A stretch of 64,000 bases of DNA, taken from NCBI GenBank assembly GCA_002633005.1, contig NMRA01000069.1:220203-284202 (forward strand), in the 5' to 3' direction. A program made the position numbers and the translations under genes. Below, one piece after another: positions 3,892-54,784 of the stretch. The stretch is from Phoronis australis. Its lineage: Eukaryota > Animalia > Phoronida. The notes beneath the pieces are model-generated. The model worked only from the letters and a program-made list of their open reading frames with translations, did not search any database and had not been told where the DNA came from. Position 1 is the stretch's first letter. The number at the start of each line of letters is the position of its first letter.

Positions 3892-4502
3892 TTAACTTGG
3901 TTTTGAAGCATCTGCTGTTTTAAACATTGGTACAACCACTAAAATGATGATAGACGCGAACAATGTTGCCAGAACATAAATATAAAACAGAAGCCTGTCC
4001 ACGACCTCGGCTAAATCGGTCCAATCTGAACGTCTGTTACCCTCAATAAGCCTGTCTTGTCGCGCAATCAGTTCATCCAGTTTATTCAAAACTTTTTCAA
4101 ACTCCATGATGGGAGAGGTCGGCTTCACAATCGATGAATCGTCTATCACGTGATCGTATTCGTCATCTATTTCCACCATGTGGCACTCGGTCTCAAGGTT
4201 ACCGTTACATTTGAGTTTCATTTCGCTGTAGCATGCTTCAATGTGATTTGGGTGTTTGCCGTTTTTATTCCTGTTCAATCGTTTCAGTTTCACGGCGTTG
4301 CTTTGTGTAACGGGTTTCAACTTTTGCATCTTTTTATTCTCCGATATATGGATACAACAGACCTTTGCCGTAGCATGAATGAATTTTTTCAAGCAAGCAG
4401 GCACGGGTCTGTTTGTGTGTGCACGTGCTTGCACGTTCGATACAAATACTGCCAGAATAACGGAAGACGCCGTTAGGGCCATGACGCACGTGATGTAAAC
4501 AC
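3892..4502 (-). CDS. nAChR alpha-type subunit, terminal exon: M3, intracellular loop, M4, stop
   Basis: Acceptor tttctag|GT at 4503/4502 (phase 1, completes Gly of VPLIG); encodes VYITCVMALTASSVILAVFVSNV (M3), then EFEKVLNKLDELI (MA helix) and SDWTDLAEVVDRLLFYIYVLATLFASIIILVVVP (W..LA.VVDRL M4 motif); TAA at 3894-3892. Confidence 0.93.
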
Positions 4503-5219
4503 CTAGAAATAAAAACAGAAATTACGTGATAATCGTTTCATATGATAAAACATGTAGATACGGTTTGCACACCTGTGTTTTAAAAACATAGCACGGTATT
4601 TGTTGTTACAAACCCAATAAGAATTGGGAAAGAACTTTTCGGTTATGATATACTTCGATAAAGAACTGTCTAATATAACAATCATTGACTTTTACTCTCG
4701 ATCATTACTGCGTTTTGAGACTCCCGTGCATTGGGAGTCTAAGAATATAATAATTTCCGAGAGGGTAAGATATAAATCGGTAAATAAAACAACAAGAATG
4801 GATCAACTGAAATTTGAAATTTTCGGATGTAATAACTTCCTTTGTCAACAGAAACAGAAACAGAGGGTAAGCAAATGTTTTAATTGTTTCATAAAAAGTC
4901 AATAGACGTCATCAATAACACTGAGACAAAATTTATAATTCCGTGACTGGTTTCAGAAGTTTCATCCCCCGAAGATATGCCGTTAACTTTCGAAAGCAGT
5001 AAATTAGCTTTACAATTAAGCCTTCCAACACGAGAATAAATGCGTTATCCTTATATACCATGTAGATTTATTAGCAGATAGTATTGCGTTAGTTAGTTAT
5101 TTCTTTGGTTCTTAAAGCGGCATTATGCCCATGCTTTCGGTCAAAAAGAACTATTGATTTAGGCCACTTACCGTGATAAGAGTGACTTTACTTGGTCCTT
5201 TCTCAGTTAAGAAGTGATT

Positions 5220-5608
5220 CCTGGGTACGGAATCTTACCTTTGTACTCGAAACGAACACGAAATTAGTTTTAGCAATTTGTCTGCTTTTTTGTGCGAACC
5301 CAAGATAAGTGGTTATTAAACTGTGCTCGAATACATTATAGTTTACGCATAAGAGTTTCTAGTCCAAGTCTGTACTTGATGACCCTTATCTTCGTGCTAC
5401 AAACCCAAATAAAAGCTCAAAATTTCGCTTTCCAACTCGAACTTTTAGGCTTAATGTTGGGTTTATCAACTGCAAACGAGGAGTAAAAAATATGCACGTA
5501 AGTCATTATGTACTCGAGCATAGACACTTGTCTTGGGTACAAAAGTAGAGTAGAAAGAGTCAAACATAACTTCGAGTTCCATTTCGAGTAAAAAGATTAG
5601 AACCCAGG
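5220..5608. mobile_element. Foldback/MITE-like element with ~120-bp degenerate terminal inverted repeats
   Basis: Left end CCTGGGTACGGAATCTT...ACCCAAGATAAGTG...TGCTCGAATACATTAT matches the reverse complement of the right end (CCTGGGTTCTAATCTT...ACCCAAGACAAGTG...TGCTCGAGTACATAAT). Confidence 0.65.
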
Positions 5609-5660
5609 CCTTGGGATCAGCAAGAGCTAACAGTTCGTTACTTTAGATCATCCTACCGTT

Positions 5661-5783
5661 CAGCAACCCTAGAACTTCGCTAAAAGCAAGATAGGTTTTG
5701 CGAGACTACGTGAGATATTGCCGTTTATTTGAAATGAGAACACGTGATTTTGGCTAGATTTAAGCGAGGTCCTAGCGTTACTG
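5661..5783. mobile_element. ~125-bp MITE; second copy inverted at ~33161-33259
   Basis: Termini CAGCAACCCTAGAACTTCGCT / AGCGAGGTCCTAGCGTTACTG are imperfect inverted repeats; the body matches the reverse complement of 33161-33259 (AAATCTAGCCAAAA.TCACGTGTTCTCATTT...GGCAATATCTCA). Confidence 0.65.
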
Positions 5784-5970
5784 GTTCATAAAATTTCTGG
5801 TCACGGCGTGACCTGAAGTTTCATGTGCTTGGTCTAACGACATAACAAAATGTAGGTTCTGTCGAAACCCTGGCATCTCGTCCAATTTGACAGAGGAACG
5901 AGATTCCATAACGGTCAGTGGTCTAAATGAAATTCCGATGAAAGTCGGTATGTATGGGGAATATTATTAC

Positions 5971-6325
5971 CTATGAGCGGCACGTAGAACGAGGTGGCCG
6001 GCATGTTCTCAGCAATGAGCAACATAAAGACGGAGAAGGAGAGTAAAACTGTCAGTCCCATTGTCACTTTTTCGCCGTTCTCTGGCGTCAGCCAAAACAC
6101 CAACAGCGTCAACGACGACAGCATTACGCATGGTACGATGACGTTGTACGTGTAGTAGAGAGTGCGACGGCGCATGTGGATTGTACACGTCACGTCCGGA
6201 TATGGCTCAGGGCAGCAAGGATACACTTTGACGTTTCGGATACATTTTGCTTCTACTAGTTCCCACTCGCCGTTGGAGACGTAATTGCTCAAGTCGACGC
6301 CTTCCCGACGCCTCAGGACGTCCAC
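5971..6325 (-). CDS. nAChR alpha-type subunit exon: loops F and C (vicinal Cys), M1, M2, M2-M3 linker
   Basis: Acceptor tttcag|GTG at 6326/6325, donor ATAG|GTAATA at 5971/5970; encodes DLSNYVSNGEWEL, YPCCPEPYPD, RRRTLYYTYNVIVPC, GEKVTMGLTVLLSFSVFMLLIAENMPATS, VPLIG. Confidence 0.96.
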
Positions 6326-6911
6326 CTGAAAACAATTTTATAAAACTGCAGTCAGATAGTTGCTCAGGTAATAATACATTTCAGTAGTACTGTTGTCTGG
6401 TAAATAGTGATAAAGCCGGACAGTGTGCATGTCGGAGACGAAAAATGACATTTCAAACTAAGAAAAAAATAGGATTGAAAAAGTTTGATCCGTCACAACA
6501 CCTACCGCGAACTCTATCTCAAACTCTTAATGCTTTAAGTGGCTTTCCGTCACAAAAACAACTTTTGATTAAGACAATATGTCTTTACGAAATTGGCCTC
6601 AAATTGTTTTGAAAAAAATACAGTTTGTTATTGCTTGATGCCAGGCTCTACAAGTTAACTTGTTACTGTTCGCCAGTTTATTCGCCGAGCGTGATTTAAT
6701 AATAAAGAACTGCAAGTTTAATGCAAAGCAACAATCACTTCTCATTTCAGTAAAGGACAAATGCAGACCAATTTAACACTGATCAGTGGTCTAAATCAAA
6801 AGATAGTTTGTTATATATAACATGGGTTCATAGGCGCTTAAACTACATTAAAAAATTCCTCAATATAATTTTTGCAAAGGCTTATACCAAGTCTACTTAG
6901 AATGTGCAAAC

Positions 6912-7092
6912 CTGCGTGCCGTCGTAAGCCCAAGATCCAAGTTTCATTTTACAAATTTGGTCGTCAAATGGAAAGTACGTGATGTCGATTTCACATGAGC
7001 TACGAAAACGCACGATTGGTGGCCAGAATACATTTCCGTCGAACGAGACCATGGCGAGTGCTTGCATGTAACTTCCGGTTATTTCGTCTACG
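6912..7092 (-). CDS. nAChR exon containing the Cys-loop and loop B (not in the ORF track)
   Basis: Acceptor ttttcag|C at 7093/7092, donor CAG|GTTTG at 6912/6911; 181 nt; [60 protein letters not shown]; phases fit both neighbouring exons. Confidence 0.95.
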
Positions 7093-8393: not shown

Positions 8394-9302
8394 CTGGGTG
8401 TCCCAGAAGTAATGTTGACGGATAAAAAACGGTAACAAGGATTCCTGTGAAATTCGACTAGAAATATATATGTCGAACATTTTGGTAGATTTTGGAAGTT
8501 TTGCACACATCAAAAACCGATTTGTCCACTTTTGCAATCTAACTTGTTACGTCAAAAACGGCTTATTTGGCGACTGTGGAAACCTTAATTCTGAATAAGC
8601 CATGTTAAATGCTCACGTTAGTTTATCATGCCAGCGTGTAACTATATCCTTTACTATACTCGTGGGTTATAAACCATGGATGGCATATCTGCCAAGGTCC
8701 CAAAAATCACTTCCGTGTCAACATGGCTGAAGTGCAGTTCTCATGAGAACAACGATCAATCGTTGTTCATCAATTAAAACACGTCAGTACCTCACCACTT
8801 GTACAAACCACCCTGCATTAAGACTAGCATATCTAAATGTTTAAGCCCAAAGTACAAATATAAACTTATCTAGTGTAACGTTAGGACGAATTCAAACAGA
8901 AATAAATGTCCTTGGTCTAAAAAGAGAATATGTGGAATGAACGCTTTGATTCAAATGCAGTGCCGAGCGACGAAATGCGTTTATGTTGACGGGGATGAAC
9001 ATTTCGATTGAAATTGTATTTAATACGAGTTTGTTTTAACTGTTTCGAAACATTGATTTCCGTCACTGTTTACAAGTTAAGAGATGTTCTTTGCGGGTCA
9101 TCAAGGAAAGAAATGGGAAAAAACTCTTCTGAGAGGCCATAGTCTAAAATTCATCACATTTATATTTTCAAGATATTTTTGGCGAAAAAAAATGACACAA
9201 GAAGACTTCAAATTTTGTTTCCATTCATCTTCGCGGATGTCCAGGGTCCCAATTCCAGTGCGAGCGTAATCAAATCGGTTTCATAATTTGTAGGACACCC
9301 TA
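8394..9302. mobile_element. Non-autonomous Tc1/mariner-like element (degenerate)
   Basis: TA-flanked imperfect TIRs: TA|CTGGGTGTCCCAGAAGTAATG ... CATAATTTGTAGGACACCCTA|TA; no transposase ORF seen. Confidence 0.45.
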
Positions 9303-11642
9303 TAAATTTGCAACGCACTCTATTTGTAAACCAAGTGCATCCAAAAGCACTTGTACCGTCTAGAAATCAAATAAACAGTTGATAATATTTGTTTTTGTGG
9401 AATCCGTACAATAAAACTTTCAACAGATAACGCCTATATTCTTGACTTAGGTGCACGATATCTAACACGTGAAAAGGATCTTCCTTAAAGTGGAACTTGC
9501 AAGCTGATTCCCAATCTCTGTGATTACTTGGTCAAATTAGTTAGAAACACAACATGTGGTGACGATGTGAATATGAAGTGGGTTGAAAATGTTTTAAAAA
9601 CGAGTTTTCTGTCGAAAATCATCAGCTTTAAGTCACCGAACTTTGTCCTGTAAGTATTGAAACTTGGTGTTAGGGAATAACACTGCATGGTCCCGGCTAT
9701 GTAAGCCCCCAAGGTACGTCATTAGTGCAAAGGTCGTTTATTCGCATATTTCTTTTGTTTTCACATTTACAATTTTTCAATGAATGCAAATGCACTTTGT
9801 TTAACGTAGATGGTGTTCAAATCGCATGTTGTTTAGTTCCTGCTATTCATTGGTACAGTTAGGAGCATTCAAATACATCTCTAAAGTGGTTATAAGCCCG
9901 CCTTCTCTCACAAAAACCTTCTTGATTTTGACCGCGTGTGGTTATGAAGTTGGTCAAACATTGTTTCTTAGCCAAAAATAGGTGAGATTTCTGGGTTCTT
10001 ATTGCTTGATACCAGACTGTGCAAGTCGATTTGTCTTTGATAAGTAACAACCAAAACATCACTTCTCATCTTAGTCTAATTCCATAGCTGTATATAACGT
10101 ATGTGGTTTAAATCACTGTGAGTTTATTGCCACTTTAAAGGGCAAATCTTAGACATGATGCGTTTACAGAAATTATATAACCGAGAAAGGAGAGCATACT
10201 GAGTGTTTTCACAACTTGGAGGATTGCATTCATTTGGCAAATGTGTTCTTTCTTCAATTAGCATGATACGTGAATTGAGTTATTATTCAGCGAACTCTGC
10301 CGAGAGTGTGGTTCTAATTAAAAGTGAAAAGACGTTTATCCGATATATCTTTCCGGGGGCAGTAAAACACATGATTCTTTGAAAAGAACCCTTTGAGATC
10401 CTGCTGGGCATAAACTCAGGGAAAATTAATTGGTTACAATATATGCGTTTCCTTAATAAATTAGACATCAATGTTCGTTTTGTGCTTATTGGATTTTTCA
10501 TAGGCAGCATCGTCAGTGACATATTTTTGCTCATGCGCCAGCTTGCGCTCTCTGACATTCAACGTCAATTGGATAGTTGAATTGACTTGTGGCTCACCTG
10601 CCGTTTTCATCCGAAAAGAAACTGATAACACCCAGGGCGTGTGCTCAGAGAGCGCAATATCTTACGCCAAAATAGAGAAATAGGGACGGGAAGAGTGACG
10701 TCACCTAACTGGGGTACATGTAGTCTGGGAGATTCCGCCATCTTGATCCTGGCCACTTCTCTATGTGAAATTACATTAGGTCAAAAGCTGTAACTGGAAA
10801 ATTACCACTTAACTAGGTTTTAGAACACACGTGGTTAATATGATACCCCGTAACACTATAAACATCAATATTACCTGCTGGTTGCCACAGACTGAGACTT
10901 ATACACATGCAGGCCACAAAATCCAGACCCATTCCTCACACAAGAGACGCGGTATGTCACAGGCATCGAGGTAAACTCAGACATACGAAAAGATACATGT
11001 TAGTTTAATTTTGCGCCCTAACCAAGTTACTGGGGTTGCTGGAGTGACCTCCGATGCACATGTCGGGTATCAACACAAAACGTAAAGTAAAATTTCGTTG
11101 CGACAGAGTGTTTCAGCTCACGATCGTTACACGTTGTGTTAGCCAATTTCGGTGAGAGAAATAGACAAGTTTTTAAACACTTTCCCTCAATAACCGGCCC
11201 TTCTCCGCGCTATTCGAAGTATTTTTCTCCAGCTTAAAATCATATAGCTCCGGCTCACTGATTCACAGACACGCTGATCTCACAAAACAGTGTTTACGCA
11301 CCTGAAACACGACTCACTGTCTTCATATGACTAAGAATTACGTCCATGACACAACGATGAGTCCGTAAGCCATGTTCGTAGGTGCCAAAGCTGTGTTTCG
11401 TGAGTCAATGAACTGAGTTTACACGTCCGTTAGCCGTGTTCACGGTTTCCGAGCAATGTTCATGAGTGTGTGATCCGTGTTGTTTGGGCAACCTGACAAC
11501 ATCGTGTTTGCAATCAAGTGACTGCGACCGTCTTCACCATCACCAGAAGTACGCCGAAGTTCGATAAAACGAAGGGCCCCCTGAGATTTTTTCAGACATG
11601 TCAGCTTACCCTGAGGCGCATCTTTTTGCTTCCGTCTCTTAC

Positions 11643-11752
11643 CTGTTATACAGCACTATGTCTGGCTTCCAAATCAGTTTACAAGGTAGACGTAGAGTTT
11701 GAAGTCCGTTGTAATCCGCTGGATCCCAGTTGAGTTTCTCGTCGTGCCATTC
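11643..11752 (-). CDS. nAChR 110-nt exon with loop A (not in the ORF track)
   Basis: Acceptor aatttcag|GAA at 11753/11752, donor AG|GTAAGA at 11643/11642; [37 protein letters not shown] (WxPDIVLYN motif). Confidence 0.94.
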
Positions 11753-12380
11753 CTGAAATTTGTTTTAAATTCACATCCTGAGTACTTCAACAAAAAATGG
11801 CTAGTTTCGATATCATGGACATTGTGCATTACAAGCATCCACGTTCGCACATCATGGAGCATTTCAGTAACAGCGATTTTGTATCAGTAGCGACTCAATG
11901 GCGGCATTCGAAAATACACCTTGAGAGTAAAAAAATTATTTTTGATTTGGTCCTCGGCGTGATGTTTTTTGAAATATTAAATTTCGAGGGTCACTGGCTT
12001 AGTTGTTGAGGTATTACTACGTCAAAGAAAGGCTGAATTTGACCTCAAAATTGCACCAAATTTAAGAATGCGATTATCCCGCGGCGTTTCACTATAGGAC
12101 GATTATGTTATTGTGTTGGGATTGTTTAATTTAGTTGATGTGAATAATTCAAGAAGAAAAAGTTCCTTGTTTACTAAATTCAAATTTGCCGCCTTTTGTC
12201 TTCACTTGCGTTTGCCTTAGTCTCAGGGTTCAGTGTGGCGTCATAGTGGATTTTTTGTCGCGCACTATTGATTAACGCCACAACAAAACGCAAAACCAAT
12301 ATGTTCCATATTAAATAATCAGTTTCAAATAGATGCACAAAACGTTCCGAGAGTGGCGTTGATGAAGTAATATCCCACGA

Positions 12381-12439
12381 GACATTATTCCGCGTATCGA
12401 CGGAGACCGAAAGTCGAGGTCGATACGCAGAATAATGTC
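12381..12439. repeat. Near-perfect 21-bp inverted repeat (hairpin)
   Basis: GACATTATTCCGCGTATCGAC ... GTCGATACGCAGAATAATGTC, one mismatch. Confidence 0.8.
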
Positions 12440-13048
12440 GAGCTTTGTATTTATCAAATACGCATCAAATTCCTAATTTTCTTTCACTTTTTGCCAGATT
12501 TTTCAAATACTCCACTCGAGACTGTTCACGTGGCGGATCACATCATATGTGTATTTGCGCGTTAGGTTGCAAGTTTTTTGTCTAGTAAAAGAAACAGTTT
12601 TAAATGTAACGGTTTATTACTTGAAAACAGATAACCAAGATGAAAGCAACGGTAACTGTGCATTGAACTTGTTAAATGTCCTGAAAATAGTTAAATATTA
12701 ACAATATTTCATATTGTAGTTACCGAGGAATCGGCTCCTGAGTTGTAGACAACATCTTATTTAACAATTGAAAACTGAGACAGACCTGTCATATAATTAA
12801 CAGTCATGTTCCGGATGTTGCGATTGAGACCTGGTTGCGCTTTGAGTGTTACTCACACTGTTGCAGTTCCATTACTTCAAACTATTTTCCGAAAGTTTGA
12901 TGATCGAACCGGCTATCGACGTCGAGTCGACATTGACCTACCTTTTGAACTTTCCATGTGTCAGAGGTCGCTGTTGAAGTGGTGCGGGAGGTGAATGCGG
13001 GAAACTTTATTACATGGCCGTACATGTATTTCCCTCGACTGATTCAAC

Positions 13049-13080
13049 GCGTATGGGATAAAATACGTTATCCCATACGC
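13049..13080. repeat. Perfect 13-bp stem, 6-nt loop hairpin
   Basis: GCGTATGGGATAA-AATACG-TTATCCCATACGC. Confidence 0.8.
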
Positions 13081-13943
13081 TGCTGCCACGGCTGCGGGTC
13101 ATGGATGTCGAGAACTATTTCATATTCGTTCTATTAAAATCTATTCAGAACCACCATTAACTGCTCCACTGGTCAAATTACGAATGCGAAATTGTTAAAC
13201 AAATGCTGTCTTAGTGAAGAGTTGAAAACTAAAGCATCAACTCCAACTCGCGTTTTCTCTTGCTTCACTCAGGCAAAACTTTCGCGTCGACTGCGTTATG
13301 AAGCCAGTATGCCCAGCAAGCCACCAAATATTATGTACATGTAGGTCTTATTCTTTAGAACCGATATAAACTGGCTTCTTTCAAAAGCACGTTCAGGGTT
13401 TAGCCCAATTTGGTCTCTGCTTGTTCTTTACGTATAATAACGATAATGTTAGCCTACATCCCATCAATAGTTTTCGCATTACATCCAGGTTCTCGTTTAT
13501 CCGCTTGCATACATTCACTAGTAAGACCAAGCTCAGAGGAATAGCGACACTTTTGTTGGCCAGTAGAGCCAGGATTTGAACCCGGTCTACCAAACGGGAG
13601 TATGAAGCATGGCTTTAAAAGACTAACCTAACAGTTAATATGCCGAAAGAGTAAAAACTCGATCATTCAAGAAGTGTCCAAACTCAAACTAATCGCCCCT
13701 AGAGGCTACAGTGGAGAAAGCGCACAAACATTTCGACTACTGCCAAGTCGAGTTGCCACTCTGGCCAAAATTGCACAGCAATCTTAGAAAACAATGTCCC
13801 GAGGTGTTATTTTTCAAATTCCCTAAGAATGGGGAAAGGTAAGACATTTATCCAAATTTGATTTGCCCGGCCCGAATCCATCCCCGGCATATTACGGGGC
13901 ACAAAACATTGGTATACATTCGAATCTGACTAGGCACCAACCT

Positions 13944-14145
13944 TATGTGGCGCAGCACTGACATAAGTGGGGGGGAATAGCCCCAGTCCCCTATGGTGGC
14001 GCATGGTCACATAGGCGGCGCAGCACTGAAATAAGTGGGAGGTATAGCCCCCAGTCCCCATGGTGCGCCACCTATGTGACCGTGGGCAGGGAATTACTGA
14101 AGTAAGTGGGGGCTATAGNCCCCCCCCCCCCCCAGCACTGCCATA
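13944..14145. repeat. Tandem array of ~3 copies of a short inverted-repeat element, ending at an N plus poly-C
   Basis: Repeated GGCGCAGCACTGA.ATAAGTGGG.G..ATAGCCCC; the central copy has TIR GGTCACATAGGCGGCGCA / TGCGCCACCTATGTGACC (14005-14081); same family as 2926-2996. Confidence 0.65.
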
Positions 14146-15594
14146 TTGTACCCTGAATTTTTTGTGTATTTTTCGCCATACAAATTACTTGCTTATTACT
14201 TTCCCTTACGTTTCCAATGACCCAAGCATGTGCAACATGCGGAAGTTGTATTTAACTGAACAAAAGATGATTAATACAATTAATGTGAGACTATGGTATT
14301 CCTATTGCCCTGACAACGAATGCAGTGCTTTGTTAATGTGTTTAAATAGGTAAGATATACGTAATTTCAAAATTTCATATCTGACTCTGTCGTACATCTT
14401 AGTATTCAGAATCAAATTTTATGGGGGAATTCTAGCCAGAGGAATTATTTTAAGCTCGACATAAGATACAACCTGCTTACACACTGTTTTAATTACATAT
14501 AATAGATTTGGACTCTGTAACAAGTTTTAAAAGCTTTTTAAAAAATAACAATCACCCGCTCTCACTGCTCCTGTTCGCTTTTAGTGTTTGAATCTACCAC
14601 TTTGTGGCGCTTCCAGTGGTGATCTTTCTTCCTGTAAAAACGTTTTGGACTACTTGGAAGTCCATTAGTATTTCCAGTTGAAACCAGGCTCAGCAAGTTG
14701 GCTCACCATGGCGGGTTAGCCTATTTTATGCTCTGAGCGTGGTCTCCTCCAATAACGAACTGTTACTTTCCATCAAACCCCAGACACGGCTGCTCCTCTG
14801 AATCTACTTGAGACTAGTTTTTATTACGGAAAGTGGTCTAAGTTGTTTCCTTGACGACCGACCACGGGTTTATAGCGGTCTAGTTAACCAATTTATTGCA
14901 ATCGAACTGTAGTATATATTTTCGGAAAAATAATATCCTATTTGTTAGCTCGCCTTTTAGTCATTGCTAATCTTTTTTAGGAGACGCCATCAGTTTGCAA
15001 AAAGCCTGACAACGTACATTTAATAACACGTGCCTATACGCCTTTGTACCGATTATGTAGTGCTCAAATTTGAGTGCTCTTTGCGACATGGCGCAATTTT
15101 ATTGTGACAGCGCAAAGTTGACAGAACACATGCGTCCCTCCGTCAAGGCAGCAAGTAAAAGAACTCCTAACCTTGTCCAGCTCCGAGCAACTAGAACACA
15201 AATCGTTTGCGGCTACCGCGTTCGGGTAAATGGCTAGTTACTCGGGAAGCACTCCATTATTTTTACAGCTGAAAACTGAGATGCCCATTTTTTTAGAGAG
15301 TCGGCACGATAAATAATACACAATTTATATAGTTTAAGGTGTTAGCGCGAATAACAAGAACCCGCACCATTGGTGGTGAACGTACGTGAAAGTCGCTCTT
15401 TCGTAAATGTTTTCGACGTAACATGATTCTTCTTTATTTTATAAACACAATAAAATGTACTGAATTTAAAGTGATAAAACAAGATTGCAAGCATCTATAG
15501 CCAAAAATTATTTGTCTTCATACACATGTTGGTCACATCGCGTGACCCATAGTAAGTCAGTGCGGTGAACCTTTCGGACTTAACTACATTGTGT

Positions 15595-15690
15595 ATAGGT
15601 CACGTGGTGTCACCAACATATGGCGCGTATGAAGACAAATAATTATTGCTTATCTGATATCAACGCGCTTACTTATAACAACACAATTAT
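15595..15690 (+). repeat. Dispersed repeat fragment, second copy at ~21711-21805
   Basis: ATAGGTCACGTGGTGTCACCAACATATGGCGCGTATGAAGAC...TATCAACGCGC..TTATAACAACACAATT aligns by eye with ATAGATCACGTGAAGTGACCACCATATGGCGTGCAAGAAGAC...TATCAACGCAC..TTATAACAGCACAATT. Confidence 0.6.
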
Positions 15691-16878
15691 GAACACTACA
15701 AAAAATTATTGGTTACAAGATGTGCAAAATGGTTCATTCCTTTTCAGACCATCAAGTCCGCCTTCTCTTAGGAAATCCGGCCATGATAACCCACGCATCT
15801 GCACGGCAAGTCCGATGTACACTCACACACCCACTGCACGTTTGAAGTACCTCTTGGGTTACAGTTACATCAAAAAGCCCAGGCGTTTCTTAGTATTCCG
15901 GTGATGTGGATTCCATTATGTTTTATTGTATCCGTCTGGTAACGAGGTACGTGCAGACGATAGATCGCTACCCTGCTATTGTAAAAGAAAGCTCTTCATG
16001 CACCGAGAGGTACGAACCGTCAGCATTTAGTTAAGGTCGTGTTTACTCGTTATTTTGATACTTTAAAAAACGAAGACACGACCGGCATCGTAAAAATCCC
16101 AATGAAGCACTTCTTTAAATAAAAGTATAATAAAATCGATGCAAATTGAAATATGTATGTCTTGTTTTGCCGGTGCCGAGGGAGCGGGGGGAGCACGGAA
16201 ATACACCAATCCGTTTTATACGGAGAAGATGGCGACGGCTACGCCCAATGTTGCCAGCGATCCTGGCGGCAATCCCCCATTTTGACGGTAGGTTCAGTGT
16301 TAGGCAGGCATATTAGGTGAACGGAGTCTGCACGTGTAGAATCAAATAAATTCTCATCATTATTGATACAGACGAGTTTGTAGATGGGTGAGTGAATAGC
16401 GGATTTGCAGCGACGCCATATTGAAATTAGTTAAAATGGTGCATTGTGGGTGCTGTGGTCAGGATTCCGAAAGCGGCCATAGTAACAAGCATAATACGCG
16501 GTATGAGCGCGAAGAAAACTTACGGCGGATACACTTGTTGTGTNAGACATTCTTGGTAGCTTAGTTTGGTAATGAGTCCAACGGTGAAATTTATTTTAAT
16601 GTTTACGAGTTGTTGTAATATCACGTATGAAACAAGTTGCGCCAAAATATTTCTGCACGTGCAACCGTAATTACCATGCTTTCAATAAAAATTCATTTCG
16701 TAATATAATGATACGCGCACCCCTATTTCTCATAATGATTGTGCATGCAACAACGTTTTTAAGGTTTTCAGATAAATTCATGTGATGCAAATGATTTTCT
16801 AACCATTATCGACGCTTTTTAAAGGATGTTACAAATGCGCAAGGCTTGTTGACGCGCATCCTCGTTTTTGATACTTGC

Positions 16879-17301
16879 CTTTCATGAGATGGTCGTAAAG
16901 CCTATGCTCGTCAAACCTCGTGTCCAAGCTTTCATTAACTTCGGCTTTCGACTCAGTCAAATGTCCAGCACCTGACGTAGAAAAATTAACACTTATTTGA
17001 CCTTCCGGTTGCACTGTGTTGGTTGGTGAAATGGAAGACGTGTGATCACGTGACAGGCTGAGCAGCCGATTTGAGCTTGTCTCTTCCCCACTACCCCCTA
17101 CCGTAACAGCAGGTCGACTGCTCATGCCTGACGTTGTTTTTGATACTGCATTCGATGTAGAAATAAATGCTGGCGTTGCAGGTAGCGAAATATCTGTAGG
17201 TTTTGCGAACGTGTAGTCACTGGTTACTTTTGATATGAGTTTGTCCGCTTTGTGTTGTGATTTCTCGCCACTTGGCGCTTTGGAAGATTGGCCAATTCCA
17301 T
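16879..17301 (-). CDS. Ser/Thr/Pro-rich stalk exon ending in the nAChR N-terminal helix
   Basis: Acceptor tctttcag|AT at 17302/17301; 423 nt, open throughout (DGIGQSSKAPSG...MSSRPAVTVGGSGEETSS...LDTRFDEHRLYDHLMK); probable GC donor AAAG|GCAAGT at 16879/16878; phase 1-1. DEHRLYDHLM resembles the (D/E)xRLxxxL first helix of Cys-loop receptors. Confidence 0.8.
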
Positions 17302-17733
17302 CTGAAAGACAGAAAAGTCATAAAATGGACAATAAATTCTTGTTTCAGTTTTTCTAACCTTGTAAGTCACAATTTGGAAAAACAGCACTTTTTCATTAGC
17401 TGACAGATGGTGTTATTTGGATACTCTGCAATATTTTGTTTTCAATCTCATGTATCCCTTCTGGTTTACGTGTACCACGGTGCTTCAGCATTAAGAAAGT
17501 GGGTTTCAACATCTGTCCTTAGTTTCAAACAATGAGACTATGAAATTTTAAGACTTTGAACGATACCCCTTGGCTATGGACAGTTCACACGAGACTCTTA
17601 AAGCAGCGTGCTTCCTTTCCACCTCAATCATCAAATCGGCTAATGTTAAATGTTTGTGCAATGATGGCGTAGATTGTTACATTATGTTGGAATATAAATA
17701 AGTAAAAGTTGAGAATATGGATCATAAACATTT

Positions 17734-17956
17734 GTCTGGTCTGCACGCCACCTGTTACGTATTCATATGCACTCACGAGTTGATGGGGGGATGCACACTG
17801 CTAAGTCTCATTGGATGTCTGTGTTTGATCGGTGGTCCCGATGGCTCGGTGTTTAGAGAAGGTCCTGGGTTCGAGTCCTGGGCGGGACAGAAGTCTTTTC
17901 AGATTGGTGATCATCAGGTCAGGTGATGTGGCCAACAGGTGGCGTGCAGAACAGAC
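17734..17956. mobile_element. TIR element enclosing a tRNA-like A-box/B-box segment
   Basis: 23-bp TIR GTCTGGTCTGCACGCCACCTGTT / AACAGGTGGCGTGCAGAACAGAC (one mismatch); internal TGGCTCGGTGTTTAGAG and GGTTCGAGTCC. Confidence 0.6.
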
Positions 17957-18601: not shown

Positions 18602-18844
18602 CTTGACATAACGGGATGTCGCAAAACTGCCACCTTATGTTAGGATTGGTTGTGTAGCACCACGGTCTTTTCATTCCGTCGGGATTTCGACAGAAATTTT
18701 CGTGCAACTTCGCGTCTCCATGAAAATCACGTGTATGAGTGTGAGGTTTCTGGGAAAGCCACTGCTGACAAGGTATCCCCTTTTCTGTCATGTTTTCAGT
18801 TCCAGAATAATTTAAACCCTTGTTGTTTCTGCATCCGTTGTCTT
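18602..18844 (-). CDS. Kringle domain exon 3 (K3)
   Basis: Acceptor cattgcag|AA, donor CAAG|GTATTG; 243 nt, phase 1-1; CRNNKGLNYSGTENMTEKGIPCQQWLSQKPH...HENFCRNPDGMKRPWCYTTNPNIRWQFCDIPLC, six Cys and NFCRNPD/PWCYT kringle signatures. Confidence 0.95.
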
Positions 18845-19754: not shown

Positions 19755-20003
19755 CTTTTGCAGGTGTGCATAATGGGATATCGCAAAACTGCCATCTAGT
19801 GTCAGCTTTTGTAGTATAGCACCAGGGACGTGGAGAACTGTCCGGATTGCGGCAGAAGTTTTCGTGAACGTCTCCGTCGTCCCGAAAGTAACGGTGGGAG
19901 TGTGGGCTTTGCGCACGCCACCTTTGACACGAGACTCCCTGCTCCGTCACGTTGGTTGCTCCTGAGTAGTTGGCACCGTTATGTATTCTACAATTGATGC
20001 TCT
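19755..20003 (-). CDS. Kringle domain exon 2 (K2)
   Basis: Acceptor cattccag|AG, donor AAAG|GTATTT; 249 nt, phase 1-1; CRIHNGANYSGATNVTEQGVSCQRWRAQSPH...HENFCRNPDSSPRPWCYTTKADTRWQFCDIPLC. Confidence 0.95.
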
Positions 20004-20628: not shown

Positions 20629-20868
20629 CTGTACAAAGTGGTATATCACAGAACTGCCATCTAGTGTCAGTTTTCATTGTATAGCACCAAGGTCTAACTG
20701 CGCCGTCCGGATTGCGACAGAAGTTTTCGTGTAGCCACCCGCTCTCAGGGTAATATCGATGAGTGTGAGGATATTGGGAGCGCCACTGTTGACACGGGGT
20801 TCCCGATTCAGCCGTGCTAGTACTACCGAAATAGTCTAGTCCCCTGCCCTTTCTACAGTCTGTCTGTT
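20629..20868 (-). CDS. Kringle domain exon 1 (K1; not in the ORF track)
   Basis: Acceptor ccgttccag|AA, donor ACAG|GTACAC; 240 nt, phase 1-1; QTDCRKGRGLDYFGSTSTAESGTPCQQWRSQYPHTHRYYPESGWLHENFCRNPDGAVRPWCYTMKTDTRWQFCDIPLCT. Confidence 0.93.
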
Positions 20869-21409
20869 CTGGAACGGAACACCTACTCTCAATTTCAAGT
20901 CGCTTAGTTTATTCATGACCAGTGCACTTGGGAGAAAAACATTTACTGATTCTTCTGCTATCACGATAAAAAATTCTGTCGAAGATCTCTGATGGGGTGG
21001 TTTCTCTTGGAGTCGTTATGCATGCCTGGGATGGGGTTCATATTTTGAAAATATTGGCAAGAGGTTGATAATGTCTTGCAATTATTTATGCTCAAAAAGA
21101 AGCGCTGAACAACCCACGGTAGTTGCAGCTCAAAACCTTTTTATAACCATAACGCTTTTGCTGAACCAATGTTGGCTTGTGTTGCTTGTTTGCATTTTGT
21201 CTTGTAGCAATATCACGTTGCCTTGTAACTTCATGTCTTTAAACGTCTACAAGCAAATCTGATCGTGAACTAATAACATTACGGGAAAGATATCGAACAT
21301 AGCCGGCCGGCTCAGTTGGTTTTGACATGTAATTAATTGTATCATCACGCAACTCCTTTGAATAGACACTATCTATGTTGGCAATTCTAATTTTGTCATT
21401 GACACTCAC

Positions 21410-21424
21410 CAATTCTCAGGATGT
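21410..21424 (-). CDS. Candidate 15-nt micro-exon (phase 1-1, (D)ILRI)
   Basis: ataatttaacag|ACATCCTGAGAATTG|GTGAGT: AG acceptor, consensus donor, frame-preserving. Splice-signal evidence only. Confidence 0.3.
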
Positions 21425-27900: not shown

Positions 27901-28644
27901 ACAATAGTTGGACATGTTCTGGAACTAACGCCACCCGTCTTCCCCTGAACAGGGAAATAAGCTTTGTGATGGCCCACCAAGGAACTTGTTGAAAGTGTTG
28001 TCGTTATCTCTATAAAACTTATTTGCCAAATTTCGTATTCTTTCACGGAACTTGGTAGATACAGAGGTAAACTAAAAAAAACTAACATTGCCACTAGGGG
28101 CACAGCAATAATCGGATTTATCCAAAAGTCATCGTCTTCCGTCGTCAGTTCCGTGGCAACATATATACCGACTTTCATGAAGATCCTGTTTAGGAGGTAG
28201 TGCAGCGTACTCCAGGAAATACGGACCCCGGCATAAATGGCGCATGAAAAGTGAGAATAGGCGATATACTCTTAAACAAGAAGGCATTATTGCCAAAATA
28301 CAAGACATGAATATCTTTTGACGTAGAAGAAACACAATAGGAATCCAGTGGAGATGTTTAGCTATTTTGTGAAATTAGCGCGGTTTGAATGAGGTTAATC
28401 GATACAAAAACTGTGTTTAAATTCATCACCCTTGTAACACACTAATGAGATAATTCTTTTAACCATGGATAAAAAATAGACATGGCAAAATAAGTTCCGC
28501 TTAATGAAATACATAAGCGTGTACTTAAGATGTTGAAATATTAATTTGGACATTTTGCGCCTGGTTGTTGAACGCACAGCATATCCGGTATGAGTTAAGA
28601 CGCGCTGCATGGCTTGGTAACCCAGTGATCCATGGCTGCTTAGA

Positions 28645-29008
28645 TATGAAGCGCCAACGGGTAGTGCCTTTCTGCTCGTTGAAATGTGCTTAATCAAAAC
28701 GTAGCTTTGTTAGATCATCGCGTACTTTTAGCTCTTACAGATCATCGTTCTACTCAACGCACATTTTGCTAAATCAACGCGTAGTTTTACTTAATGAAAG
28801 CGTCTTTTCAGTCAGCTCTAATCCGCCCGTGCTTTCAAATTTCAAAATGGTGGAAGACTTACTTTTGAAGAATGTTGCAGATTCTTTAGGCAAACTACGC
28901 GTTGAATAAGAACAGAACGATGATCATTTAAAAAATAAAATTACGCGTTGATTAAGCACATTTCAACGCGCAGAAGGTACTCGTTTAAGAACCACTTGGC
29001 GCTTCATA
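28645..29008. mobile_element. MITE with long TIRs and subterminal ACGCGT-containing tandem units (copy 1)
   Basis: TATGAAGCGCCAA ... TTGGCGCTTCATA; inner GAAATGTGCTTAATCAA / TTGATTAAGCACATTTC. Confidence 0.75.
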
Positions 29009-29110
29009 CCTAGAAACTGAGTATTCGGTTATATTTTGACAAGGGTGCCACTTGGAAATTTGAAAACGGAACACCATTTTAGAGAGTCTGTAACAAAAAC
29101 CCCAACCCTC

Positions 29111-29812: not shown

Positions 29813-29844
29813 ACGCACACGCACGCACACACACGCGCACGTAC

Positions 29845-29904
<60 letters not shown>

Positions 29905-29908
29905 ACAC
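29813..29908. repeat. (CA)n microsatellite with CG interruptions
   Basis: Direct reading; it explains the HT/CV-repeat ORFs 29797-30069 and 29801-30019. Confidence 0.95.
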
Positions 29909-32900: not shown

Positions 32901-34316
32901 AAAATGTCTAATTCGGTTAACGTTTTAGTTACCTAATCAGGGCGATTGCAACTTTAAGTGTACTCGAAATGTAATGCATTGAGAATCGCGATGAAAAAAC
33001 ATTAGCCTGAAGTGAGGAAACTATCTTGCATTCTACAAACTTGTATGGCGATGTTTCTTTTCGGAATTTCAAATCAATTGTTATTGTAAGTGGCGGCAAT
33101 ACATGTGTGTTGAGTCTTAGCATAGCTGGGTAGACTTCAGTAGCTGTCTCGCGGCTAGAAAAATCTAGCCAAAAATCACGTGTTCTCATTTAAAATACAC
33201 GGCAATATCTCATGTAATCTCGCGAAGTCTTGCTTTTTAGCGAGGTCCTAGCGTTACTGAACTCTGCCTAGAAGGGAAACGCGAAACTGATGACAACCGG
33301 AGGGTATGGGTAGCAATCCGGGGTACCAAATCTACTAGTAAAATGAGTTTTGAACGAGGTAGGTTATTGCAACGACCAAGACAGCTACTTCAGTGGTGTC
33401 AAGTATGAAATAAATTAGATTCAGTGCAGCGGTATTTGATTAGCAGCATTTTTAGAAGGCATGTTTTACCTTTTTTGTCATTTTTGTAATTATGCATCGA
33501 CCAACTACTAGACAGTCATGTACATAATCATAGACGACTTACTAAAGATTCTGAGAGTGATGAACTCAAAATATACGCGGGATCCCAACCTAGTCATTTC
33601 CACTTGCAGAGCATGGCATCTATTATTAAGTTTGCGCATCATTTAAAGTGCTTAAAACCAACAATTTCATGTCAAAAACACCAAAAACATCAATTGATCA
33701 TCTGGCAAATTAGAGCACTCGAAAACACTACCTGACGACATGATAATTAGTTGGTCTCGAGTTACGAGTATTTATTCGTCGATACAAACTGCGTAGAATC
33801 GCGATAACCAAACAAAGTGCCAGGCACCCTCCGCTGTGTTTAGTGTGAAAAGTTGTCGGCTGTTTCTGCTTCTTTTCCCTGAGGTTAATGACGTAATAAA
33901 AATGGTAAGGAATTGCGTTTGTTTCTGGTGCGACAACTCGGTACTTGTGCACGCTGTGGCTCTTTTCATTTTCCCACGGACCACCAGAAAAGCACGCATA
34001 TCTACTTTTCGTACAAAAAAAACTCGCGTTTTAGTGGCATAACACACTGAGTCGATGCGTCACATTAGTGTCTGTGGAGGTAAGAAAATGGTCAATTGAC
34101 GCCGCTCGTCTTTTATTTTCTCGTTTTTGAGGATATTAAATTCACGATTCTGATACGCAATGGATGCTGAAAATATAGTCACTTGTCGAAACAAGGTAAA
34201 TAGTGCTTTCAAACATATTAAAACTCAGTGGCTGCATTGGTGTGAGTGGTCGATAAATCAGACATTAGATTCTCAACGCTGCAATACCTTATCTGGTAAA
34301 TTTTGGTATAGTTTCA

Positions 34317-34897
34317 ATGAAGCGCCAATTAAAGGGTTCTTAAACGAGTTACTTTCTGCTCGCAGAAATGTGGTTAATCAACGCGTACATTTGCTTAATC
34401 TACGTGTACTTTTGCGTAATCTACGCGTGCGTTTGCTTAATCTATGCGTACTTTAAACGAACATCGTTCTACTCTTGATCAACGCGTATTGTAGACAATG
34501 CGACCGTCTCGACTGGCCCCAGTAGTGACAGTGAAACTCCTATAGGAACTTCATACGCCCGAAGGTTTTGGGGAATTATGCCTCGCACTAATTAAAGCAT
34601 CTAAGTCTCGCTGGTATAAGTACATTATTTGCGCATAGAGAAAAAAAGGCCCTTAGGAGGCAGTCGGTGTTTTTAATTCCTTCCAACTCGAACAAAGTCC
34701 CTAACTTCTGTGTTCAGTTGCCAAATTGGCAACTGACCATGTTTAACTCTGCGCGCGCAGTGAATGGCTATACGAACTGACTAAACGTACACGTTGATTA
34801 CGTAAAACTACGCGTATATTAAACAAAAGTACGCGTACATTAAGCACATTTCTACGCGCAGAAAGATACTCGTTTAATAACCCTTTGCCGTTTCATA
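34317..34897. mobile_element. MITE of the same family as 28645-29008 (copy 2)
   Basis: ATGAAGCGCCAA..AAAGGGTTCTTAAACGAGT.ACTTTCTGC.CG.AGAAATGTG ... CACATTTCTACGCGCAGAAAGATACTCGTTTAATAACCCTTTGCCGTTTCATA; ~21-nt units TTGCTTAATCTACGCGTACTT in tandem at 34371-34454 and inverted at 34787-34850. Confidence 0.75.
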
Positions 34898-50964: not shown

Positions 50965-51041
50965 CACACACCCACACGCGCACACGCACACACGCGCACG
51001 CAAGTGCACGCACGCACACATACACACACGCGCGCACACAC
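50965..51041. repeat. Imperfect (CA/CG)n microsatellite
   Basis: Direct reading. Confidence 0.9.
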
Positions 51042-54000
51042 CCAATAAGGTTGTGTTTTCACGATAAACTTGAAAAAACATTTGGTTTCAAGAAGTGGAA
51101 AATGGTGTTTCAATGACTGTGACATTTAATGAAGGGTTGCGACCAGTTTACCTTGTAATAATCAATTGCGACGAGATCTGGACTCATAAAGCTTGTCAGA
51201 TTTAGACACTACTCTAAAAGACGTAATTAATAATTCCACGAAAATGTAATACCGCGTTATTGATTTTAAACGCTTCGAATGTGACAGTTTAATAATTAAT
51301 CCACGGCAGAAATCTGAGCGTTTCATACATAGCCTATTTGCATTACACGTGGCCACAAGGATTGTAACTAAACTGGGTTCTGACTACTGAGCAAACATTT
51401 TGATATTAAACAGAATTGACAAATCAACTTTTAAATCAAAGTGTAATGAATACACGATCCTTACATTTGACCAACAAATTCGGTGACCACTGCACGTCAG
51501 CGCGTATTTTCGGTATACGCTTTTCTCAGCAAAATTAATATCCTGTCAAAAGTACATGTACTCGTTATCTATTGACACCAACGCAAACGTCAATAGGTTC
51601 GTGACGAGTGGGTCATTTTTCTTAATTTTGTTGTCTACATATATGTTTAACAATGGCCCCCGAACTGTCACTTTCAACTTTCAACTGGTCGAAAGTACTC
51701 ACAGTCTACTGAGAAAATTAGAACCACTTTGGCAATACTCGTAATCACGTGATCAAGTAATGAAAAGCCTTTAAGAAATAAAATTGCAATCGTTCGCTGG
51801 CATTATAGACATTTAGATGTTATTAAGATGTGAAGAGCAAATGCACATTAAACATGTTATTGAAAGCGTGGAATGAAAGTCCGAGAGATTACAATACACA
51901 TGAGCCACAAAATAACGGCAGCAAATGCCGGAATATTTACGCACAAGATTAGGCCCCCTCGGAGCTTAGAAAGGGGCGGAATGTAATATATCAAATTACC
52001 CTGGGGACAGCGGACGCTCTTCCGGAAGCCGTAAAACTTTCCCACGAGAAGATTTGAATTGTTATTGTTAAATGATGAAAATAAAAATGCTAATGATGTA
52101 TTTACCTGAAAGCATTCTTAGGACTCGTGAAAGTCGAAGTCGAAAATATCATACGTAAATCTTATTCAATTCAATGCACTTACATTTCACACTGACGATC
52201 AAACTTAGCAGCAACTGATTTTAAAATGGCAACCGACAAATAATGTTGTTCACTAGCCTACTACTAGGGGGGGCTGCGAAGCTGCCTTTGTCTTTTAAGA
52301 CAAAGGCAGCTGTGTCAGAAGTTAAAACTTCTGACACAGATCCAATATTGTATCTTCCGATGCGGCCACGCACCCAAATATTATTCTTTGTACGAAGGTT
52401 TTGGAGGTTTATCAAACACGATTTCCAAGCAAGGTACCACATCAGTTCGTTAAGATCATTTCAAAACCAGCAGCGTCTGTGTACTCCCACTGTGCTCGTA
52501 CTAGTTAACGCTCGGCGTACCGCCTACCCCAAACATTTACAAATTTACACTTCTAAGTGGCCATGCTCAGCTAACTACCCTCCCCCAAATTATTCAATCA
52601 AAACAACCTTAAGGGTGCCGTGTGTTTGTGAAAGCCTGTTTAATGAGAAGTTCGCATCGGGTATGTTAAAAATACACTACATGTTACTCATGGGTGCCGG
52701 AACAGGTACGGCCGGTCTGATGGACACAGAACCAACATTGTCCATAAAATAAGTCAAAAAGGCGTTTCGAGGCATCTACAATGCATCAAATGAGCCTTGA
52801 ATTCTAAAAATTTGAAGCTCCCAGACTTCCTACGGGGGAGTACCCCTCCAGTATCATAGTTATAGCCGACTTAGACGCTCGTCCATTTGGCGAAACAATG
52901 TTCTCGACGCTACTGGTACTGGACGTGATTACTCCATTCTAGACGGTATGTTAGTACATTGTCCGCATTCTTACGATTTTAATATTTGACTCCAACACGT
53001 GAGGTCCTAAGTTACCCGACTGATCGTTCAGGTAAACGCTTATCCGCAACCCACCTTGGGCTTAATGCCCGCCACCTCATTTTTTAGTTTTCCAGTTCAA
53101 GCGCCCTGGGCGTTAACCCGCATGACTTAGGAAACACCACACACCAAGAAACTTGCAACTTCTACGAGTCGGCATAATGCGTGCCAAATGGTGTTTACCT
53201 GGAAAATCTTTTTCCAGGACTACTAGAGGCCTTATGTTCTGCTGGGGGTGGGTCTACTGCACTATATTTTGGACGCTGCGTGCAACTGGAAATTGGGACA
53301 CGCACTCATTTGAAGAGTGGACAAGAAAATGGAACCCATTTGTAGGAAACTTCTATGGCTACGAAAAAATCACCCATACGAAGTTTTGTTCCAATAACAC
53401 CACCCTTTGTAGAGTTTGATTTCATAAACCTAGCATTTTCGTGTGTATTCGTGGACAGGCGTTTTTTTAACCAAAAAGCTTGAATCTGCAAGAAAAATTT
53501 TGCACTTTTGCAAATGAAATTTGTGAGTTGTGAAACTGAACCTTTTAAAAGATGTCTTAAGTTAAAACTGCCTTAGTGAACACTGATAAGGAATTAAATC
53601 GGAAACTGGTCGTGAAAAAGTCACCGATATCATCGGCACGTCTCGTACTTCTTTTCTACGGGAGTCTCCCCTTTCTCGATTCTTCCAACTTATGAGTCAG
53701 CTCGTGAAAAAATGCACCATGATAAAAAACGCTGTTAATGAAGACGCCGGCGTCGTCCGTGAGGACTGGAATATTGCCTATCTGCTGTAGAAAAGACGAG
53801 TTATGGCAGTTATCATTTTGGGTCATGCGGTAAATTAATTGATTTCCAATTAAGATCGCTAAAGGGTTGTTCAGATTAACTCCACTATGCAATCTCTGAT
53901 TGTAGTAAATGTGGTTACGTTCATAGTGAAATTGACTTTGTGTCATTCATCCGCCCCAGGTCTCCCAACTGTAAGCCCTCTTAGGAAAAGTTTTATTTCA

Positions 54001-54723
54001 CGCAGACAAAAGCCCGGGAAACGAACACTAGATACAGTACAAGCGAGATGTGGGAATTCAAACGCGCAGAAAACAAAATCAGAACTGCAATCGGCGGCAA
54101 ACTGTGTTGACGAGAAAAGGGCGATGATGTCTACAGCGTCAACGCCTATATAGATTGTTCAAGCAAACATGTTTCTGCAGAAACTATAAGGTTTCCTGCT
54201 ATCAAATGCGCTCTTTTGGACTAGAAGATGTACAATGATAGCCCATTCTACGCACATAGCAAGCCTTGGGGTATTGAAGCTAAAGTGGCACTGTTTCTCT
54301 CTTCCGCAAAGGTCCTAACTTGATGTTCAAGTCCCAGCGATGTCTGCTTTTCCGTGACAAAACTAAAAGATATTCTAAGGCACCGTGAGGGCTTCGCTAG
54401 ACTAGTGCTCACCAATCCCTTAGTCGATGACACCATGTCTAGTCGCTTACTGTCTAAATGCAAGTTGTGGAAGCTGCGCATTACTAGGCATGGGCGCAGT
54501 TCTGACACCGGGTGGAATAGGTGACTTCATTTTGTGGTAAGGCGTTAGCATAGACATCGCCACACAAATTCAAATTCCGCGTCCGGAAGTTGCGTTAACT
54601 ACCTAGATTTTCTTTATCATAAAAACGCTGCTTCAAAACTTCGCCGGTATCCTACTCAACTTTCCATCTCTCTGAGACGGCCTGTGTGTTTAGCAGGTAA
54701 ATTAACAATTCACAGTGACTTAC

Positions 54724-54784
54724 CTGCTCCTACCAGCGTGAGGACTGAAAAACAAATGACAAAAATCGTCAACACTTTCTTCAT
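54724..54784 (-). CDS. Probable first coding exon (signal peptide) of the kringle-nAChR gene
   Basis: acaATG AAG AAA GTG TTG ACG ATT TTT GTC ATT TGT TTT TCA GTC CTC ACG CTG GTA GGA GCA G|GTAAGT = MKKVLTIFVICFSVLTLVGA: basic n-region, hydrophobic h-region, V-G-A cleavage pattern, consensus phase-1 donor compatible with the K1 acceptor. Linkage across ~34 kb is inferred. Confidence 0.6.

Follow-up and report, generated by a model that had tools for sequence, protein, structure and literature searches.

A probable kringle–nicotinic acetylcholine receptor chimera in the genome of the phoronid Phoronis australis

We analysed a 64,000-nucleotide stretch of the Phoronis australis genome (GenBank assembly GCA_002633005.1, contig NMRA01000069.1, positions 220,203 to 284,202), hereafter called the window. 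Its minus strand carries nine assembled coding exons, which run from a signal peptide through three kringle domains (K1–K3) and a Ser/Thr-rich stalk to the last transmembrane segment (M4) of a nicotinic acetylcholine receptor (nAChR) subunit. The locus is likely one gene, and the kringle–nAChR architecture is probably real. The reading that we favour, with a probability of about one half, is that this single gene encodes an acetylcholine (ACh)-gated, cation-selective alpha subunit of about 868 residues, in which the kringles, carried on a predicted disordered and glycosylated stalk, would tether or cluster the channel rather than gate it. In animal nAChRs, the ligand-binding domain (LBD) starts a few dozen residues after the signal peptide, and clustering relies on separate proteins. 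With its 374 additional extracellular residues, such a subunit would be evidence that an alpha subunit tolerates large folded modules at its N-terminus. Deleting these modules could also test directly if tethering outside the cell is by itself enough to position or tune a Cys-loop channel.

Gene layout and reading frame

The features of the locus, all on the minus strand, are as follows.

54724..54784, minus: signal-peptide exon; 61 nt, or 20 codons plus 1 nt, with a phase-1 GT donor
20629..20868, minus: K1 exon; 240 nt, phase 1-1, six Cys (Pfam PF00051, E 4e-24)
19755..20003, minus: K2 exon; 249 nt, phase 1-1, six Cys (PF00051, E 5.1e-24)
18602..18844, minus: K3 exon; 243 nt, phase 1-1, six Cys (PF00051, E 5.4e-26)
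16879..17301, minus: stalk exon; 423 nt, 141 codons, encoding the 130-residue stalk and then the first LBD helix; donor of a GC-AG intron
16971..16990, minus: candidate internal acceptor in the stalk exon; in frame, phase 1, 20 residues before the helix
11753..16878, minus: interval without about 134 expected coding nt (the rest of ancestral exon 2 and a 45-nt exon)
11643..11752, minus: nAChR exon with loop A; phase 0-2 (PF02931, E 7.5e-13)
6912..7092, minus: nAChR exon with the Cys-loop and loop B (PF02931, E 1.6e-17)
5971..6325, minus: nAChR exon with loop C (vicinal Cys), M1 and M2 (PF02931 and PF02932; top PDB match human alpha7, E 3e-40)
3892..4502, minus: last exon, with M3, the intracellular loop, M4 and the stop (PF02932, E 3.6e-11)

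A preliminary description of this DNA had placed the exons on one strand, in order and in compatible phases. The strand and the order hold throughout, from the signal peptide over K1–K3 and the stalk to the nAChR exons. The phases agree in the 5′ part: joined by coordinates, the signal, K1, K2, K3 and stalk exons leave 405 codons open, with every join in phase 1. They do not agree at the next join, where the stalk exon ends in phase 1 while the next assembled exon (hereafter exon 11752) starts in phase 0. The four 3′ exons, when joined, leave 418 codons open up to a single terminal stop. The complete frame from the signal peptide to M4 thus consists of two open halves, with about 134 nt absent between them.

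The signal-peptide exon lies 34 kb from K1, and we infer that the two are joined across this distance; a second in-frame ATG lies upstream, at 54826. Between 21000 and 61000, 86 open reading frames of at least 72 residues include none with a Pfam family above cut-off. In a scan for an ATG followed by a hydrophobic stretch and a donor, only 54784 has a 7/7 donor, and no candidate was found between 11753 and 20868. This range includes the interval 11753–16878, in which a signal-peptide exon belonging to the receptor alone would, according to the preliminary description, speak against the chimera. Its claim that the junction lies inside one exon of a single chimeric gene is supported by the lack of such an exon in the scan, by the position of the receptor's first helix within the stalk exon, and by one RNA read that very likely joins K3 to the stalk, as described below.

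The kringle domains

The three N-terminal kringles that had been proposed are confirmed both by Pfam (E 5e-26 to 5e-24; 85–91 bits against a cut-off of 34.3 bits) and by a kringle profile search of the window, which returned exactly three, each with six conserved cysteines. Matches by tblastn near 21000 were rejected as a fourth kringle. The mutual identity of K1–K3 is 57–59%, and their best identity to any fetched kringle protein is 51–55%; that they are closer to each other than to the fetched kringles fits a local triplication. In pairwise comparison, they differ at 40–46 of 79 third codon positions, as compared to 15–24 first and second positions, and because the differences concentrate at third positions, the kringles look selected. 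The coding sequences thus fit a local triplication kept under selection.

K1–K3 resemble the plasminogen/HGF-type kringles (PDB 4a5t, 7mo7) in their six cysteines, their NxCRNPD and PWC motifs, and the encoding of each kringle by one symmetric phase-1 exon. They differ in the acidic pair of the lysine-binding site, which is incomplete in all three: in the alignment, DGA, DSS and DGM occupy the place of DND, DRE and DAD in plasminogen K1, K2 and K4. The Asp-x-Asp/Glu anionic centre of the lysine-binding kringles (plasminogen K1/K2/K4/K5 type) is thus found in none of them. Since the second acid is absent from all three, plasminogen-type binding of lysine or fibrin appears unlikely. Kringles lacking this second acid, such as those of HGF and plasminogen K3, bind proteins, and by analogy K1–K3 may bind a protein or a glycan in the manner of the HGF kringles.

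Among the large clusters of the ESM Atlas, K3 returns kringle-only clusters. Two oyster models (P0130 and P0134) join kringles to LDLa-LRR-seven-transmembrane receptors, and kringles thus appear to have been shuffled onto other lophotrochozoan receptors too.

The stalk, the first helix and the internal acceptor

The stalk comprises 130 residues, 32% of them Ser or Thr, with no Cys, two N-glycan sequons and no R-x-x-R site. AlphaFold2, run on the single sequence, predicts mostly low-confidence coil (predicted local distance difference test mostly <70), with a hairpin at 89–109 and a helix at 131–139. The stalk as a query against the large ESM Atlas clusters gave nothing at 0.9. The exon is Ser/Thr-rich, 141 codons long and ends in the first helix of the receptor, as had been described, although the helix match by itself is weak. 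A higher score in the position-specific scoring matrix (PSSM), 22.0, is reached by an intronic string at 8736–8777 (minus strand), above the real helix and all 50 shuffled windows; it was rejected as a chance match, with a stop just upstream and no RPV segment after it. No other helix followed by an RPV segment occurs in the window. The stalk exon ends at the residue that precedes the missing LBD segment, a position occupied by Gly in 14 of the 66 homologues.

Inside the stalk exon, the acceptor at 16971 has the best pyrimidine tract (10/14) among 29 AGs; its score is equalled by 63 of 842 intronic YAGs and is not rare by chance. If the signal exon were spliced to 16971, about 40 residues would precede the helix, as compared to a median of 38 in the 66 homologues. 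This site is possibly the ancestral exon-2 acceptor, and a kringle-less isoform made through it is possible. The preliminary description had also reckoned with up to 15 kringles per homopentamer. This number finds no support here, and the symmetric exons, together with the in-frame acceptor, would allow isoforms with zero to three kringles.

At 17088–17096 (minus strand; stalk residues 68–74), a Ser-Gly pair is followed by acidic residues, which we take to resemble a glycosaminoglycan attachment site. It is one of four Ser-Gly pairs in the stalk, a number near chance for the stalk composition.

The missing segment of the ligand-binding domain

Two conserved segments of 29 and 15 residues, found in 66 of 120 homologues, belong between the stalk and exon 11752 (44 residues, about 134 nt). 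Both are absent from all six frames of the window, where the best PSSM scores are −22.1 and −8.4, as compared to leave-one-out minima of 54.0 and 41.9, and tblastn of the window was also negative. The LBD profile positions after the helix, up to position 54, are accordingly absent from the assembly.

The intron structure of homologues indicates how this sequence was arranged. The helix and the 29-residue segment are encoded together by a single exon in five homologous genes, which lie in 4 of 13 metagenome loci, and the 15-residue segment forms a separate exon in the three homologous genes where it was found. The stalk donor in the window is of the GC type (AAG/GCAAGT, phase 1), and a GC-AG intron directly after the helix is absent from these five homologous genes. 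As helix and first segment form one exon in the homologues, the window gene appears to have gained the GC-AG intron, with about 134 nt missing from the assembly; the intron at 16879/16878, inserted at an AAG/G site, is likely a lineage-specific gain.

The N at 16544 interrupts a repeat (16395–16543), and the loose ends of RNA sequences diverge exactly behind 16543, with an agreement of 0.98–1.0 (runs X1, X2 and X4, introduced below). This N is likely a contig break, that is, an assembly gap, in which the missing 134 nt would be located.

RNA evidence

We used about 18–19% of each of three raw-read RNA runs under the same species label (X1–X3) and one contig run (X4). Reads were decoded from depth tables at 38-nt resolution, and three reads were set as the threshold for an exon joint. 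The gene is weakly expressed. RNA depth is present on exon 6912–7092 in X1–X3, and sense-strand depth on the last exon (3892–4502) in X2 and X3, while the X4 contigs match repeats only.

In the region 16560–17690, six reads were found (four in X1, none in X2, two in X3). All lie inside the stalk exon in the orientation of minus-strand RNA, the RNA depth in the flanking introns is zero, and the reads are clipped at both exon ends; five of the six fit the exon. One X1 read covers 17250–17303 and is clipped, with 52 nt on the stalk. Clipping at 17303 would be expected after an upstream exon with AAG at its end, as in K2 or K3, but not with CAG, as in the signal exon or K1. Of its 151 nt, 99 nt are left, and the K3 bin holds 98–103 nt of X1 sense depth, as against none in the bins of K1 and K2. 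With an AAG-type clip end and matching depth only on K3, this read, one molecule, very likely represents the K3–stalk junction.

Further reads are clipped at the other end of the exon, a second X1 read at 16877 and an X3 pair at about 16878, which indicates that the GC donor is in use; an alternative GT at 16875 would give 27 nt. The X1 read that passes the donor is not continued on exon 11752, where the X1 depth is 0, and this fits the presence of the missing exons in the mRNA. A fourth X1 read, of 33 nt and clipped, lies just 3′ of the acceptor 16971 and is probably the one read with under 90% identity.

The receptor part and its relatives

The four 3′ exons carry Neur_chan_LBD followed by Neur_chan_memb (M1–M4), both above the Pfam cut-off, as in Cys-loop receptors, and the C-x13-C loop with FPFD is present. 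The loop A Tyr, the loop B Trp, and the vicinal cysteines of loop C with their flanking tyrosines are intact. Aligned to human alpha7, M2 has the GEK motif, L9′, V13′ and E20′, with Glu at −1′ and no Pro-Ala. On these residues, an ACh-binding, cation-selective nAChR alpha subunit is predicted.

In a tree of 28 rows (P0024 was dropped by the trimming pattern), the receptor groups with lophotrochozoan type-D subunits in a clade of 14 rows (SH-like approximate likelihood ratio test, SH-aLRT, 96.1; ultrafast bootstrap 96), and a quick tree of 48 rows gives the type-D grouping an SH-aLRT of 93. Its placement nearer to annelid and nemertean than to molluscan rows is weakly supported (88.7/59, 90/35). 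In the conserved region, its branch length is 0.30, as compared to 0.21–0.27 in the three annelid and nemertean rows closest to it. The type D or alpha9-10-like nAChRs of Biomphalaria (P0009), Aplysia (P0016), Pomacea (P0002), Capitella (P0008) and Lineus (P0003) share 69–74% identity with it, aligned from the LBD to M3. Homologous loci share its downstream intron positions, and the type-D subunits its alpha-type loop C and its GEK pore. The homologues differ in what precedes the first helix: the median is 38 and the maximum 94 residues in 66 homologues, as compared to 394 in the window gene, and the kringles therefore look like a lineage-specific gain. The available parts of two papers (PMC8634148, PMC4193815) contain nothing on the function of subunit D.

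One of the metagenome loci (L008) carries two tandem nAChR genes, at 4861–6979 and 8748–10457; in the second, loop C and the M2 region are divergent.

Proposed function and alternative explanations

How could such a subunit have arisen, and what would the kringles do? In the proposed course of events, the phase-1 intron that follows the signal peptide would have received a kringle exon by shuffling, and a triplication of this exon would have followed; the stalk would have formed when the ancestral exon 2 was extended upstream. The long, flexible stalk may span the extracellular gap to a partner; coupling poorly to the gate, it would uncouple the binding of the kringles from gating, and the kringles would set the position of the channel. 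As the stalk is predicted to be disordered and is 130 residues long, tethering or clustering is favoured over sensing, and a clustering or adhesion role of the kringles is plausible. Vertebrate MuSK, which has a kringle in some species, positions ACh receptors. In C. elegans, according to the available part of PMC9304021, the extracellular L-AChR complex with LEV-9 and LEV-10, composed of separate proteins, gathers ACh receptors into clusters and changes their currents; it is thereby similar, in that extracellular interaction modules position ACh receptors and alter currents. Both systems differ from the window gene, where the modules would be part of the pore-forming subunit instead of lying on separate proteins.

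A further proposal, which we regard as tentative and rather doubtful, is that a canonical ACh-gated channel captured its own anchoring or protein-sensing arm by exon shuffling, and that the splicing of the symmetric exons and the internal acceptor sets between zero and three kringles per subunit. If this were true, a free receptor and one that clusters itself or responds to proteins would both come from one gene; elsewhere, this task falls to separate proteins (MuSK, LEV-9/LEV-10).

Several observations weigh against the tethered alpha subunit. In the mapping of X1–X3, no exon joint reached the three-read threshold; K1 and K2 have no reads in the sample, and the signal exon lies outside the regions covered by the RNA mapping. 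The reads overshoot the GC donor, by 1 nt in the X3 pair and by 2 nt in the X1 read, and the X3 pair could also come from splicing straight to exon 11752 with a frameshift. The X3 depth on that exon is 98–103 nt, and the fit is about as good as a synonymous difference in the missing exon. The PSSM score of the helix, 15.5, lies below the best of 50 shuffled windows (16.3) and thus within the chance range, so that the case rests on the position of the helix and on the RNA. The loop D Trp (W55) of the complementary face, which a homomer needs, falls in the segment missing from the window. Finally, no orthologue with kringles was found among the fetched proteins and loci, and conservation therefore provides no argument for function.

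We weighed four other explanations, which we rank behind tethering in the order in which they are given here. The gene may be functional and chimeric as proposed, with kringles that bind a protein, a glycan or a microbial pattern and alter gating or trafficking. Such a sensor has parallels in the lobster, where a role as neuro-immune receptors is proposed for 66 ligand-gated ion channels (LGICs) that bear CLECT, pentraxin and LDLa domains (available part of PMC8221624), in the prokaryotic pentameric LGICs with fused sensor domains (available part of PMC549065), and in the kringles on the oyster LRR-G-protein-coupled receptor models (P0130, P0134). We consider it unlikely, as the Cys-free stalk, predicted to be disordered, would be mechanically ill suited to link the kringles with the gate, the checkable ACh-site residues are intact with no sign of a ligand switch, and the lobster mechanism is itself a proposal. 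Somewhat less probable is an ordinary nAChR without kringles as the main product, with the signal exon spliced to 16971 and the kringle–stalk form as a minor or tissue-restricted isoform. The in-frame acceptor with the best pyrimidine tract of the exon, the resulting length of about 40 residues before the helix (median 38), the clipped 33-nt read beside it, and an RNA depth that is higher on the 3′ exons than on the kringles would all suit this explanation. On the other hand, 63 of 842 intronic YAGs score equally, the 33-nt read, with its probable identity of <90%, may match by chance, the depth gradient is accounted for by 3′ bias, and two X1 reads lie upstream of 16971, in the stalk proper.

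The two remaining explanations concern the integrity of the gene. The 134 nt may be truly deleted and the splicing frameshifted, which would leave a broken gene or allele that yields no channel, or a secreted kringle–stalk fragment alone. The absence of both segments from the window, the X3 pair with its nearly equal fit to exon 11752, and a gap marker that consists of a single N point in this direction. We give it a low probability, below that of the kringle-less product, since the nine assembled exons have no stop or frameshift, the N at 16544 stands precisely where the repeat breaks off (loose ends agreeing at 0.98–1.0 in X1, X2 and X4), the X1 read continues from the donor into a sequence other than exon 11752, and the branch length (0.30) is ordinary beside the nearest annelid and nemertean rows (0.21–0.27). 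Least probable, and quite improbable in our judgement, are two genes or an assembly chimera, with a secreted kringle–stalk protein beside a separate nAChR that has a 5′ end of its own, concealed by the gap. The Ns at 16544 and 14119 do stand between the stalk and the channel exons, the helix score by itself is within the chance range, and the RNA reads include no single read that links the stalk to an assembled nAChR exon. Yet the stalk exon ends at the residue preceding the missing segment (Gly in 14/66 homologues), it is spliced onward in the RNA instead of being read through to a nearby stop, and no other helix with an RPV segment exists in the window.

Precedents and novelty

Within the searches made, no other pairing of a kringle with an nAChR was found. 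None of the 289 nAChR-like proteins fetched has a kringle, and none of the 55 kringle proteins has a channel domain; both sets are samples and do not imply a database-wide absence. By family, PF00051 occurs in 0 of the 120 nAChR matches listed (of 156 found) and PF02931 in 0 of 55 kringle matches. No kringle occurs in 27 long nAChR matches, whose range of 946–2700 residues does not include the predicted size of 868, nor in 23 proteins, most with late-starting or long matches, chosen among the 150 listed of 8941 representatives, nor in the 13 homologous metagenome loci. Among the papers listed in the literature searches, none describes a kringle fused to an nAChR, a pentameric ligand-gated ion channel, a Cys-loop receptor or Neur_chan_LBD. 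Jiao 2019 (PMC6896357) counts nAChR models “with other functional domains”, not all of which are named; the word “kringle” is absent from its text and from seven readable supplements, one picture PDF being unsearchable. A term search of Jaiteh 2016 (PMC4795631) likewise gave no matching passage.

The layouts nearest to that of the window gene among the matches listed (P0311 and P0306) were rejected, as their extensions are of low complexity and contain no folded domain. Both are alpha7-like subunits with 300–400 low-complexity residues ahead of a hydrophobic segment, presumably resembling insect alpha5. An ostracod nAChR model (P0183) has a Sushi match after M4 and may be a merged gene model.

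The preliminary description knew of no characterised Cys-loop receptor with kringles, and the kringle–nAChR pairing does stand alone in these searches, but extra extracellular modules on animal Cys-loop receptors are already in print, in the lobster. Polinski et al. 2021 describe 66 lobster Cys-loop LGIC genes with CLECT, pentraxin and LDLa domains, apart from the 24 lobster nAChRs and with no assigned function; the authors did not find this class in lophotrochozoans, and “kringle” occurs 0 times in the text of that paper (PMC8221624). These receptors resemble the window gene in being animal channels (PF02931 and PF02932) with extra extracellular recognition modules in one chain (available part of PMC8221624). 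The window gene does not belong to their lectin–pentraxin–LDLa class, as the channel that carries the additional modules is a canonical nAChR of the alpha type, with a long Ser/Thr stalk, and kringles are the only extra domain found. The prokaryotic pentameric LGICs fused to PBP-I, Cache or MCP-N likewise have extra N-terminal domains on a pentameric channel, but these are small-molecule sensors on Cys-less bacterial channels of independent origin (available part of PMC549065). With the gene described here, chimeric Cys-loop receptors would no longer be confined to the orphan channels of crustaceans but would include a true nAChR of another animal lineage. The value of this finding is limited, since it concerns a single gene from one assembly and its RNA support is thin.

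Other features of the window

The window has a GC content of about 40% and contains two Ns, at 14119 and 16544. An Rfam search of it gave no match. On the plus strand, an alpha/beta-hydrolase exon (61180–61884; Pfam Hydrolase_4) with an N-terminal Cys cluster lies head-to-head with the receptor gene, about 6.4 kb from the signal exon, and we take it to be similar to the depalmitoylase ABHD17. Dispersed and inverted short repeats, some of them hairpin-like, occur at 5658–5761, 33161–33262, 28641–29012, 34317–34897 and 52280–52339, and CA microsatellites at 29816–29908 and 50965–51041.

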